A DNA stretch of 64,000 nucleotides, from positions 224,001-288,000 of IMG/VR virus record IMGVR_UViG_3300022719_000071; one strand, written 5' to 3'. This document shows positions 9,636 to 55,199 of the stretch, piece by piece (the first letter of the stretch is position 1; every line of letters begins with the position of its first letter). The stretch is from a virus (taxonomy: Duplodnaviria > Caudoviricetes). Position numbers and translations under genes: made by a program. The notes under the pieces were generated by a model, which searched no databases, had not been told where the DNA came from, and worked only from the letters and a program-made list of their open reading frames with translations.

Positions 9636-10772
9636 ATGGCGCTCGAATACCTGAATGATACACCACAAAGAGCCTACCGTAAACTAGAGCGTGATTTGCT
9701 ATTGCAAGATCCACAGCTTAACATGCGTCGGTTCAAGAACATGACCCCACGCAGTTTGAGCACAGTCATCGAGTCTCTGGACTCTGAGATGAAGGGTATT
9801 ATCAGCGAGGCGAAGTATGGTTCTTGGTTGACTGATGATGAGTACGTTCAGAAGAAGTTACTACGTGATGCATTGGATTGCTTGCGTGAGTACAAAGAAG
9901 CCCGCCGTAATTCAGAGAAGGTAGTTCCTGGTTTCACTTACTACCGCCGTGTAAAGCAGTTCGGTCCTATGATTGAGGGTGAGCGCTGCTATGTGCGTGA
10001 AAGTTCTCCTCCCTTATGGGCACAATTCAGGATGCCGTTGGCTATCGCCAAGGCTTTTGAAGTGATGCGTCATGGTGATGGAAACGATTTCAAAAAGATT
10101 TACGTTGAGATGGCCAACGGTCGTTTGAACGCTTTGAATGATGTTGCTATTGAGCACTTGACCGAATCAAGTGATGATGCTCTAGCAGACATCGAACAGT
10201 ATTGTAACGAGCGTTGGGAAGGTCCATGGCCTTGGGAGACTCCAACCCCTTACGCATTGCGTGAAAGCATAGAGGATAGATTAGAAATGACTAACAAGAG
10301 CATTCAGCAGATGCAAGCAGACTTCGGAAGTCTAATCGTCAAGTTGAACGAAGACGAAATGGATAAGTATGAGGTTATCGCATCCGCCGAGGAGATGTCC
10401 AAAAAGATCGAAAACATGGTGCAAGATATCGCTCGTTTGGCTGGTGAGGGAATCATTAAGCTGAAGGATCAGATTCGTGTGACCATGGGTGACGAGCAAG
10501 CTGAACAAATCGAAGATACTTTCGTTGAGCCAGTTCGTGGTGCAGCCGATGCTCTTTCGAAGCTACGTGCAACCATCGACCAATTCGCTGAGGGTCTGAA
10601 GTCCGGAGACGTATCTAGTGGTGCCGAGATGGGCGGCATGGGCGATGAGCTTGGGGGTGACGATCTTGGTGGTGATTTGGGTGGAGACCTTGGTGGTAAT
10701 GAGCTTGCAGGTGACCTAGCTGACGCCAGCGTTGATGGTGAACCAGAAGAGCGTGCCATGAAGGACATGTAA
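9636..10772 (+). CDS. Hypothetical head-assembly/scaffold-like protein
   Basis: TAAATA and AGGAG upstream; coiled-coil middle; low-complexity GGDDLGGDLGGDLGG acidic tail. Confidence 0.5.
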   Translation: MALEYLNDTPQRAYRKLERDLLLQDPQLNMRRFKNMTPRSLSTVIESLDSEMKGIISEAKYGSWLTDDEYVQKKLLRDALDCLREYKEARRNSEKVVPGFTYYRRVKQFGPMIEGERCYVRESSPPLWAQFRMPLAIAKAFEVMRHGDGNDFKKIYVEMANGRLNALNDVAIEHLTESSDDALADIEQYCNERWEGPWPWETPTPYALRESIEDRLEMTNKSIQQMQADFGSLIVKLNEDEMDKYEVIASAEEMSKKIENMVQDIARLAGEGIIKLKDQIRVTMGDEQAEQIEDTFVEPVRGAADALSKLRATIDQFAEGLKSGDVSSGAEMGGMGDELGGDDLGGDLGGDLGGNELAGDLADASVDGEPEERAMKDM

Positions 10773-53208: not shown

Positions 53209-53247
53209 GGGATTGTAGCAAATGTTGGCTTGCTCCCGGCTCTTAAC
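53209..53247 (+). pseudogene. 5' half of a tRNA-Lys(CUU)
   Basis: GGGATTG-TAGCAA..TTGCT-CCCGG-CTCTTAA-C, after which homology stops. Confidence 0.6.
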
Positions 53248-53333
53248 TAGTAAACAGTTTAAGACACAGAGGAATTCGATAGATACAAACGCCAGAGACG
53301 AATAATCGTTCCTGGGAAACAAGTAATAGAAAT

Positions 53334-53409
53334 GGACTCGTAGCTCAATTGGCAGAGCACCCGGCTCTTAACCCGGGGGTTGCAGGATCGTTGCCTGCCG
53401 AGTCCACCA
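53334..53409 (+). tRNA. trnK: tRNA-Lys(CUU), copy 1
   Basis: Loop CTCTTAA; C.C mismatch in the anticodon stem; T-loop ATCGTTG; CCA end. Confidence 0.85.
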
Positions 53410-53414
53410 AACAT

Positions 53415-53489
53415 GGCTCTGTAGCTGAGATGGATTAGCGCCTGTCTGAAGAACAGGAGAGGTTGGTTCGATTCCAACCGGAGCCACCA
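53415..53489 (+). tRNA. trnF: tRNA-Phe(GAA)
   Basis: CCTGT-CTGAAGA-ACAGG; CCA end. Confidence 0.92.
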
Positions 53490-53494
53490 AACAT

Positions 53495-53563
53495 GGGTCG
53501 ATTGTGACTGATTATCGTTCTCACAAGGCCGTGGTCGTGGGTTAGAGTCCCACCTTACCTCTA
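53495..53563 (+). pseudogene. Degenerate tRNA, possibly Val(CAC)
   Basis: Intact T-arm GTGGG-TTAGAGT-CCCAC and loop CTCACAA; broken D and acceptor stems. Confidence 0.4.
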
Positions 53564-53623
53564 CAATGGGTAAGGTAGATCACGTAAAAACGTCGGTTAC
53601 GCCCACTTATCCGTGTTTGATTT

Positions 53624-53699
53624 GGGTCCATAGCTCAATTGGCAGAGCTGCTGACTCTTAATCAGTAGGTTGGAGGTTCGAGTCCTCCTGGACCCACCA
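53624..53699 (+). tRNA. trnK: tRNA-Lys(CUU), copy 2
   Basis: GCTGA-CTCTTAA-TCAGT; CCA end. Confidence 0.92.
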
Positions 53700-53751
53700 A
53701 GGAGATGCAATGCTGACTTGATCAATTGGCACTCGGTTATGCAGTGACGAT

Positions 53752-53868
53752 GGGATCGTAGTTCAACGGTAGAATACTGGACTTTTACACTTCGGGGTGG
53801 CAAATTTAATTGGATGCGGCTCCGTCTAATCCAGGAGATGTGGGTTCGAATCCACGCCGGTCCCACCA
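53752..53868 (+). tRNA. trnK: tRNA-Lys(UUU) interrupted by a 41-nt anticodon-loop insertion (53788-53828)
   Basis: Acceptor GGGATCG/CGGTCCC-A-CCA; anticodon stem CTGGA/TCCAG; loop CTTTTA|insert|A. Confidence 0.8.
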
Positions 53869-53870
53869 AA

Positions 53871-54130
53871 GCTCAATGGGCAAAGTCATGAGACACTAGT
53901 AGGAAACTGCCCGAGAAGCGTATGTGAGTCGTAGCGGTCTCTACGAACAAGCGAGTTGCGCTTGACTTACAATGGTGAACGTAATATGATTTACTTGAAC
54001 AGAATTCGAGCACGCTGAGGTAACATTCAAGCAGGATGTAGAGAAGAAGTTCTACGGTAAGTGCCGCTGTCCTGAAGCTCACATTCCAACCGAGAGGGTA
54101 ATGAAGACGTTGTGTGAGAAGCACAACCTT
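53871..54130 (+). ncRNA. Candidate structured ncRNA B (unassigned)
   Basis: Stems GGGCA/TGCCC, CGTAG/CTACG, CAAGCG/CGCTTG, CTTGAA/TTCAAG, CAGGA/TCCTG, ATGTGAG/CTCACAT and GTTGTG/CACAAC; no credible ORF. Confidence 0.5.
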
Positions 54131-54142
54131 TAGGAGAGAACG

Positions 54143-54541
54143 ATGGCAAAGAAGACTGTCCGTAGAAAGGCTACCGATCCAAAGATGCTTACCATCAGGA
54201 AGGACATCGATCTCAGCCATTTGAATTCCAGTCCGTTATCCCACGTCATCAAAACACTTCAGGAACTTGCGGACAGCGAGGGTTGCGATCCGGACTTGTC
54301 TCACGTAGAGTTTGAATACGAGCGTGGATACTACGATGAGTTATCCATAACACTAATGGTGCACGCAGTACACGAAAGATTGGAAACTGAGAAGGAAGTG
54401 GAGAAGCGGATCGAACAGGCACGCAAGACTCGTGAGAGTAGGAAGAGAGCCAAGGAGGAGCAAAAGGCCAAGGAGATCATGGAACGTGATCGACTACTGG
54501 AAAGGTATCCATTGGACACTGTGCCACCTGTGATGGACTAA
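54143..54541 (+). CDS. Hypothetical protein with charged coiled-coil C-terminus
   Basis: AGGAG RBS. Confidence 0.65.
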   Translation: MAKKTVRRKATDPKMLTIRKDIDLSHLNSSPLSHVIKTLQELADSEGCDPDLSHVEFEYERGYYDELSITLMVHAVHERLETEKEVEKRIEQARKTRESRKRAKEEQKAKEIMERDRLLERYPLDTVPPVMD

Positions 54542-54575
54542 TAAATATACATCACACGAATAGGAGGAACCCAGA

Positions 54576-54739
54576 ATGGGAAGTACACGATTACAGATTA
54601 TCTCTGGTGTCTCCTGTTCCACAGGAAGTACCACCGTCGTATTGTATATCATATAATGCCCGGGAAAAAGCTTCGAGTGAGTGAGTGCAAGAAATGTCAT
54701 GCACAGTTCTTGCGTGAACGAGTTGAAGATGTAATCTAA
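54576..54739 (+). pseudogene. Small Cys/His-rich ORF with a 1-nt frameshift at codons 2-3
   Basis: AGGAGG RBS and ATGGGAAG; the shifted frame reads KYTITDYLWCLLFHRKYH...ECKKCH. Confidence 0.45.
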
Positions 54740-54777
54740 TGCGGTGAAAGCATTTAAGTAATTATAAATACAACTGA

Positions 54778-54851
54778 AGGAAGGTAACTCAGTCGGTCAG
54801 AGTTCTCGTCTTATAAGCGAGCGGTCGTGGGTTCGAGTCCCACCCTTCCTA
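54778..54851 (+). tRNA. trnI: tRNA-Ile(UAU)
   Basis: CTCGT-CTTATAA-GCGAG; AGGAAGG/CCTTCCT acceptor; no encoded CCA; TATAAATA just upstream. Confidence 0.85.
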
Positions 54852-54947
54852 CTATTATACTGATTTGCATTCACTCATTTATTTGGGTTCGACTCCTCGG
54901 GGGGCGTACCACTTGACTGAAGCAATGGAAAAACATATCTTCACGAT

Positions 54948-55199
54948 ATGATAGTCATCAAAATAGAACTGTGGCCTTTAGGATTTGAGTCCCGCAAAAA
55001 GGAACTTGGTCGCATGCACATCATCAACAAGGGCAGTGGGTCACTGATTCGTGGTGACTATAGTGTCAAGGTGATGAGGCGTGGCACCAAAGATAAGGTT
55101 CAGCGAACTGGTGAGGTTACCAGCTATCCTCGTGAATCCTATAGCGTATGGCGTCTTGTCATGCGTGCTTTGAAATCAGCATTCCCGGAAGAGAAATGA
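54948..55199 (+). CDS. Hypothetical protein
   Basis: MIVIKIELWP...GDY, a recurring small phage protein pattern. Confidence 0.6.
   Translation: MIVIKIELWPLGFESRKKELGRMHIINKGSGSLIRGDYSVKVMRRGTKDKVQRTGEVTSYPRESYSVWRLVMRALKSAFPEEK

Follow-up and report, generated by a model that had tools for sequence, protein, structure and literature searches.

When a phage tRNA gene keeps its cloverleaf and has its anticodon loop interrupted by 41 nt, is the insert removed from the transcript, or has the gene been disabled? This question is raised by a putative tRNA-Lys(UUU) gene in the window analysed here, a 64,000-nt stretch (positions 224,001 to 288,000) of the IMG/VR record IMGVR_UViG_3300022719_000071. 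The source record is a single 360,469-bp virus contig (46.7% G+C; CheckV completeness 91%) that carries ~43 tRNA genes and T4-like replication genes, the latter being the reason why the virus appears to be bacterial. To our knowledge, neither bacteria nor their viruses have ever been shown to splice tRNAs with proteins, and an original prediction for this gene proposed a splicing system that depends on a phage or host nuclease.

Results

A tRNA gene interrupted in its anticodon loop

The interrupted gene, delimited with Rfam RF00005 and the intron mode of ARAGORN, occupies 117 nt on the plus strand (53752-53868), encoded CCA included. It matches the Rfam tRNA family end to end (model positions 1-71) with 45.5 bits (E 4.7e-08), above the gathering cut-off of 29 bits, and the alignment contains a single 42-nt insertion, placed in the anticodon loop. 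ARAGORN in default mode calls no tRNA at these positions; in intron mode it reports a 117-nt tRNA with a 41-nt intron, whose anticodon it gives as Arg(tct).

Alignment to the tRNA model and to uninterrupted orthologues divides the gene, in the 37/38 frame, into a 5' exon that runs to the canonical A37 (53752-53787; acceptor 5' strand, D arm, 5' strand of the anticodon stem, C32, U33, the UUU at 53784-53786, and A37), a 41-nt insertion that is missing from five orthologues (53788-53828), and a 3' exon (53829-53868; A38, 3' strand of the anticodon stem, variable loop, T arm, acceptor 3' strand, A73 and CCA). The expectation that every arm would be intact, CCA included, holds in that the acceptor, D, anticodon and T stems all pair and ACCA is encoded, with one exception: an A that bulges from the T-stem 3' strand (53854, plus strand), an extra base in the Rfam alignment and the sole irregularity outside the insert. 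This bulge recurs as a signature of the tRNA-Lys(UUU) lineage (see below) and is a conserved lineage trait, not damage. Judged as a possible pseudogene, the gene has a disrupted anticodon loop and no further decay elsewhere, a state that would fit either a very recent lesion or continued selection.

Public sequencing runs were searched with a 2.3-kb region and with the gene alone, and the only runs listed as containing it were four DNA runs of one study, with no RNA run among them. DNA contigs from three samples of this study cover gene and insert without a listed difference; the insert is wholly spanned by one contig in each of two samples, and in the third two contigs meet inside it. None of the DNA contigs of the three samples skips the insert. 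Since the same gene and insert occur in contigs of three samples, an assembly artefact of one data set is not the explanation. In one run (X2) the assembly is split at 53785/53786, the 5' edge of the insert, with depths of 5.7 versus 8.4, and yields no insert-free contig.

Uninterrupted orthologues in related phages

Homologues of the peptide deformylase, the DNA polymerase and the neighbouring amidoligase led to relatives, and a metagenome scan with the T-arm/acceptor signature of the gene led to further ones; contigs with the closest deformylase or amidoligase were too short to reach the tRNA cluster. In these relatives the tRNA cluster recurs in the same gene context, preceded by the deformylase and followed by the amidoligase and a gene with an RF-1 domain. 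Five uninterrupted tRNA-Lys(UUU) orthologues were recovered (L083:16411-16486, L202:8932-9009, L206:868-944, L216:4797-4870 and L217:3370-3446). All five share the D arm and the acceptor 3' strand of the window gene, and in four of them (all except L216) the T-stem 3'-strand bulge is present as well, together with compensatory changes in the stem; a conserved bulged base at this place is unusual for an elongator tRNA. The anticodon loop reads CTTTTAA in four orthologues and CTTTTAC in one, and the anticodon stems are fully different among orthologues yet pair in each, which is what a tRNA under selection would be expected to look like.

The orthologue of L217 differs from the window gene, across the D arm, T arm and acceptor stem, by a 1-nt indel in the D loop and one T-stem base, in a phage whose deformylase is only 55% identical to that of the window phage; both phages carry Lys(CUU), Lys(UUU) and Ile(UAU) in this order. 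Further uninterrupted Lys(UUU) genes are present in L215, L218 and L219, and wherever the Lys tRNA region of a relative was recovered, it included at least one intact copy. The relatives' genes are clean and intact, with none of the random decay that the original prediction had named as the mark of an insertion pseudogene; nor is the insert itself, whose conservation among relatives had been put forward as a check, conserved in any of them. It is derived, and was seen in one phage species only.

Searches of reference collections added little to this set. GenBank phages gave only generic tRNA matches in a search for close relatives of the gene; in IMG/VR, neither an exact D-arm and anticodon-stem pattern nor the T-arm/acceptor signature had a match, and the matches to a looser D-arm pattern were unrelated tRNAs and were discarded. 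Single-protein scans of IMG/VR with the amidoligase and the DNA polymerase likewise found no match, and a polymerase alignment there yielded relatives of only ~40% identity.

Lys(UUU) rather than Arg(UCU)

On the strength of the five uninterrupted orthologues, with their shared D arm, acceptor stem and bulged T stem, we assign 53752-53868 as a tRNA-Lys(UUU) gene; U34-U36 and A73 are present, as for tRNA-Lys(UUU). Removal of 53788-53828, or of the same length slid by -2 to +1 nt, produces an orthologue-type Lys(UUU) loop, so that cuts after U35, U36, A37 or C(+1) all lead to the same anticodon. The predicted identity, and a junction compatible with 37/38, are in this way borne out by the loops CTTTTAA and CTTTTAC of the orthologues; the prediction that a shifted junction would give Arg is also correct, cuts after U33 or U34 (a slide of -3 or -4) resulting in UCU.

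ARAGORN in intron mode, the check suggested for the gene, recovers a 41-nt intron at these coordinates and departs from the prediction in the anticodon, calling Arg(UCU) with the intron at 33/34. Were this frame correct, the mature tRNA would read AGA, for which the genome has no other Arg(UCU) gene (AGA makes up 10 per 1000 codons), the 5' exon would end in U and the intron in G. We consider this highly improbable: the same-body orthologues (n=5) are all Lys(UUU), the UUUU A of the ancestral loop is retained in full on the 5' side, and position 20 of the D loop is U, not A, A20 being a main ArgRS identity element in Escherichia coli. Intron calls made by tRNA finders in phage genomes may therefore name the wrong anticodon, here Arg instead of Lys, and call for caution.

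The insert matches no known intron or ribozyme class

In minimum-free-energy folds, both for the whole gene and for the isolated anticodon arm, the cloverleaf is kept and the insert forms a separate hairpin, whose core lies at 53793-53824 (plus strand). Its arms (53793-53802 and 53815-53824) pair over 6 bp and 3 bp, separated by a G.G mismatch, and enclose a 12-nt, A/T-rich loop (53803-53814); the flanks, CUUUUACACUU and UCUAA, are single-stranded. Hairpin stability is modestly above that of shuffles (local z-score -1.8; 7 of 200 shuffles fold as well).

Group I and group II introns depend on a catalytic core (P3-P9 or domains I-VI, respectively) and usually exceed 200 nt. Their exclusion on grounds of size stands for an insert of 41 nt, and no intron or ribozyme family was detected in 53250-54950 (Rfam, E ≤ 10). 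Small self-cleaving ribozymes (hammerhead, twister, pistol, hatchet, HDV-like) gave no covariance-model match at E ≤ 10, and at that threshold the insert draws no Rfam match other than tRNA. A scripted search for bulge-helix-bulge motifs (helix, 3-nt bulge, 4-bp helix, 3-nt bulge, helix) counted 32, versus 34 in shuffles. Only one exact motif would keep the two exons attached; it falls within the insert (helix at gene positions 42-45 / 70-73), and cuts there would leave a loop of ~20 nt, not 7 nt. None has bulges at both exon-insert junctions, in agreement with the original remark that an obvious motif is lacking. As to a tRNA-shaped mini-intron of the type seen in Lak megaphages, the insert has no second tRNA match at E ≤ 10, and on inspection its A/T-rich loop (53803-53814) lacks a T-loop register.

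There is no second copy of the insert in the phage genome and none in the metagenome contigs reached, and gapped patterns run against IMG/VR and 185,579 GTDB species genomes yielded nothing beyond chance matches to the pattern itself. The further copies that would mark a mobile repeat or MITE-like element are accordingly missing from the genome, IMG/VR and the GTDB genomes. A TA duplication at the ends of the insert is compatible with the sequence, and is not significant. Two other origins were considered and rejected: a scrambled tRNA fragment or local duplication (the best score of the insert to 153 tRNAs is 21, versus a shuffle mean of 24.4), and protection of the site of an adjacent homing endonuclease (the 132-aa ORF at 54143-54541 has no nuclease family match). 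No terminator or promoter was flagged inside the insert.

RNA repair enzymes without a recognisable cutter

A search of the genome for RNA ligases and nucleases, also proposed with the original prediction, succeeded for the former. The phage encodes a 442-aa Rnl1-family RNA ligase (L207:1027-2355, minus strand), which matches Pfam RNA_lig_T4_1 with 103.5 bits as a protein (105.8 in a genome scan) and T4 RNA ligase 1 structures 2c5u (E 8e-25) and 5tt6, at E about 1e-24. The gene of a 477-aa Pnkp-like kinase-phosphatase (L212:535-1968, minus strand; AAA_33 kinase and Metallophos domains) lies ~1.7 kb from that of the ligase; the protein combines a P-loop kinase with a calcineurin-type phosphoesterase and matches PDB entries 4jst, 4gp6 and 4j6o; these were deposited as 'Metallophosphoesterase', and we take them to represent Clostridium thermocellum Pnkp (its kinase and its phosphatase domain). 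Two Rnl2-like ligases are also encoded. Gene matches thus supply a heal-and-seal set of Rnl1-family ligase, 5'-kinase and phosphoesterase; with the Rnl1-type, Pnkp-like and two Rnl2-like enzymes sealing is available, and the phage should in principle be able to heal and seal broken RNA.

The search for a cutter had the opposite outcome. RtcB (PF01139) and EndA (PF01974) are absent from the 360-kb phage genome (91% complete), though control genomes matched, RNase III is absent as well, and among the phage genes we identified no nuclease for the two breaks flanking the insert.

A tRNA cluster in turnover

The interrupted gene, which the original prediction had noted as the only UUU-anticodon tRNA of the window, is likewise the only one in the whole 360,469-bp contig. 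The cluster around it has four Lys-type genes, with intact Lys(CUU) genes kept, and ~500 nt upstream of the interrupted gene it contains a decayed 5' half of a Lys(CUU)-like tRNA (~53209-53250, plus strand; acceptor strand, D arm and a stem-loop with CTCTTAA, no T arm). Half-genes and degenerate copies occur both in this cluster and in those of the relatives. The phage contig has no tRNA-Asn and no tRNA-Tyr; at least one Asn gene is found in every relative whose cluster was recovered, and most have two. The lineage is remodelling its tRNA set, in a cluster where tRNA genes are visibly being gained and lost.

In 210 long ORFs lysine is preferentially encoded by AAG (35 per 1000 codons), and AAA is used 1,591 times (18 per 1000). 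A tRNA-Lys(UUU) is available from any bacterial host. Stop codons of the same ORFs are distributed as TAG 14, TAA 105 and TGA 91, which could reflect partial recoding or read-through of TAG, and outside the window the phage contig carries a tRNA with a CTA anticodon (G000:C1:22700-22777, minus strand), of amber suppressor type and named 'Pyl' by ARAGORN.

Several other genes of these clusters have unusual shapes. A Lys(CUU)-type tRNA at 53334-53409 (plus strand; 57.3 bits with Rfam tRNA) has an anticodon arm that can be drawn with a perfect 5-bp stem and an 8-nt loop (for ARAGORN, a 4-base anticodon CTTA) or with a 7-nt loop and a C.C mismatch, and an unusual T loop (GGATCGTTGCC); its counterpart L083:16088-16164 has a normal 7-nt loop and a similarly odd T loop. 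A conserved module that resembles a circularly permuted tRNA lies at 53490-53623 (plus strand) and also in L215 (~9990-10400, minus strand). It consists of a T arm and the acceptor 3' strand CCTTACC, a short linker, and then the matching 5' strand GGTAAGG with a D-arm-like part whose last bases are ACGTAAAACGTCG; the window has one such module and L215 two, and the Rfam permuted tmRNA model matches only weakly (13.3 bits, E 5.3). Flanked by these modules in the Lys cluster of L215 is a gene (10141-10259, minus strand) with good acceptor, D and T arms and ~43 extra bases at the anticodon-arm site, which ARAGORN calls Glu(ttc), placing a 43-nt intron similarly; with a different body and a score below the Rfam tRNA cut-off, it was not accepted as support for the window gene. 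One of the tRNA-Asn(GTT) copies in relatives L083, L202, L206 and L215-L218 is 83-86 nt long, with a long extra arm that is abnormal for Asn, and Ile(TAT) genes of 92-93 nt with an extra arm occur in L215 (8261-8352, minus strand), L216 (5016-5107) and L219 (13511-13603), unlike the normal 75-nt Ile(TAT) of the window (54778-54852).

Discussion

We favour, at a probability of about 45%, a young disabling insertion that stays in the transcript. A tRNA-Lys(UUU) gene conserved across a clade of T4-like jumbo phages, represented here by the phage's own copy, would recently have gained, in one lineage, a 41-bp hairpin-forming insertion in its anticodon loop. In the primary transcript the hairpin should sit atop the anticodon stem of an otherwise normal cloverleaf; as encoded, the RNA lacks a 7-nt anticodon loop and so cannot decode. 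If the insertion is not removed, the tRNA gene would be a young null allele on its way out, in a cluster with gene turnover. This reading accounts for the uninterrupted state of the five orthologues and of the Lys(UUU) genes of L215, L218 and L219, and for an insert that displays neither a known splicing signal (Rfam, E ≤ 10; bulge-helix-bulge counts as in shuffles) nor tRNA-like shape or sequence (21 versus a shuffle mean of 24.4 over 153 tRNAs). The insert is an orphan, without another copy in the genome and with matches in IMG/VR and the GTDB genomes limited to the pattern, and so gives no sign of a maintained mobile intron family; the phage encodes no splicing endonuclease, RtcB or RNase III. 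Loss of the gene would be in keeping with a lineage that is losing tRNA genes (no Asn; a decayed Lys(CUU) half-gene upstream), as well as with the preference for AAG, the intact Lys(CUU) genes and the supply of tRNA-Lys(UUU) by any bacterial host.

Several observations pull away from a disabled gene, and most of them are shared with the strongest competing explanation, which is that proteins remove the insert as a mini-intron: an endonuclease of host or phage would cut, the Pnkp-like enzyme would heal and the Rnl1-type ligase would seal, yielding a working tRNA-Lys(UUU), with the added possibility that AAA decoding depends on active RNA repair. The cloverleaf is preserved next to a hairpin that folds independently; apart from the insert, the gene is undecayed, with its stems, T-stem bulge and CCA kept and two differences from L217, and the insertion has hit the anticodon loop precisely. 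A new hairpin at exactly this place is the behaviour of targeted intron-like elements, not of random mutation, and mobile introns, too, are typically present in some relatives and absent from others. The genome's only Lys(UUU) gene, facing 1,591 AAA codons, is the one affected, while the recovered relatives keep an intact copy, and the phage encodes, besides two Rnl2-like ligases, an Rnl1-type ligase and, ~1.7 kb off, a Pnkp-like enzyme, counterparts of the pair that reseals tRNA-Lys anticodon loops in T4. Short unexplained anticodon-loop inserts recur in huge phages, and in Lak megaphage tRNAs such introns are conserved (PMC6784885); hairpin inserts are likewise found in unrelated phage contigs (e.g. 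L098:6617-6733 and L159:6143-6249). Splicing nonetheless strikes us as rather unlikely, since neither a cutter nor a recognisable cleavage motif was found in the phage genome or the gene, and the insert is not conserved elsewhere (genome, metagenome scan, IMG/VR, GTDB). The ligase and kinase weigh little here, as Rnl1 and polynucleotide kinase genes are common in T4-like phages without any tRNA intron.

A third possibility, which we hold to be improbable, is that the RNA functions unspliced, as a tRNA-Lys mimic whose extended anticodon arm serves as a decoy or sponge for nucleases of the PrrC, RloC or PARIS type or for modification enzymes. Anticodon nucleases classically target tRNA-Lys, the body of the tRNA is preserved in full, one of the four Lys-type genes of the cluster has a possible 8-nt loop and an odd T loop, and other phage contigs repeatedly contain tRNA-like genes whose anticodon loop is enlarged; the natural targets, however, are recognised through a 7-nt loop and a modified U34, which the interrupted RNA does not present, and the interrupted form is not conserved in relatives.

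What the gene would signify differs between these readings. If the insert is not removed, as the young disabling insertion implies, the gene may offer a clean snapshot of a phage tRNA gene dying or turning into a tRNA mimic. If it is removed, the sole tRNA-Lys(UUU) of the phage would start out as an inert precursor that the phage's own RNA-repair machinery activates; removal would be direct evidence for protein tRNA splicing in bacterial viruses, outside archaea and eukaryotes, would give the phage's ligase and kinase pair a second job besides the repair of nuclease damage, and would provide a simple 41-nt substrate for finding the missing endonuclease.

Comparison with known systems

The closest working analogy for a splicing route would be that of phage T4, where tRNA-Lys is cut by PrrC and repaired by the PseT polynucleotide kinase-phosphatase and RNA ligase 1. 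The two cases share tRNA-Lys(UUU), the anticodon loop, and an Rnl1 homologue encoded with a 5'-kinase/phosphoesterase. They differ in that T4 mends a single nick in a mature host tRNA, with nothing excised, whereas the window gene has a 41-nt insert, and in that the healing enzyme of the window phage resembles bacterial Pnkp, not T4 PseT, with a nuclease partner not found.

The 37/38 introns of archaea and eukaryotes (cut by EndA or Sen, sealed by RtcB or Trl1) are alike in their compatible position, similar length and extended anticodon arm; unlike them, the window insert has no bulge-helix-bulge that would restore the loop, and the phage has no EndA and no RtcB. With the disrupted tRNA genes and gene fragments of phage tRNA clusters the locus has in common the half-genes of its cluster and the loss of Asn tRNAs, but the halves of the window gene are contiguous and undecayed, and a clean insertion is the only lesion.

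Run with wide intron limits over all fetched loci, ARAGORN mostly returned false chains of neighbouring tRNAs, and filtering left a few real hairpin inserts in unrelated phages. Two of these, 32-nt hairpins in the anticodon loop of tRNA genes on unrelated IMG/VR phage contigs (L098:6617-6733, plus strand; L159:6143-6249, minus strand), share the stem motif GAACATC ... GGTGTT and may constitute a small family of plain hairpins. A nearly identical 93-nt tRNA-like gene is present in many prophage-like contigs of 40-65 kb (L085, L094, L116, L132, L134, L143, L144, L148 and others); its loop starts like that of Lys(CTT) and continues with ~23 extra pyrimidine-rich bases, and a 92-nt partner with a 22-nt loop expansion is often nearby.

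The Lak megaphages contain 'enigmatic' short introns in tRNA genes, for which the mechanism of removal is not known (Devoto et al. 2019, Nat Microbiol, PMC6784885). These introns are conserved, often identical, across cohorts, and some are themselves tRNA-like, with a T-loop motif in a 93-nt Tyr intron and a possible tRNA inside a Thr intron (PMC6784885). The window insert resembles them as a short anticodon-loop insert in a huge phage that is too small to self-splice and is absent from related genomes; it differs in that the Lak introns are conserved and partly tRNA-like, whereas it is a plain orphan hairpin in one phage species. Although there is a substantial chance that the insert-bearing gene is simply a broken gene, we file it as a further, structurally different example of a known, unexplained class, the short inserts in the tRNA genes of huge phages.
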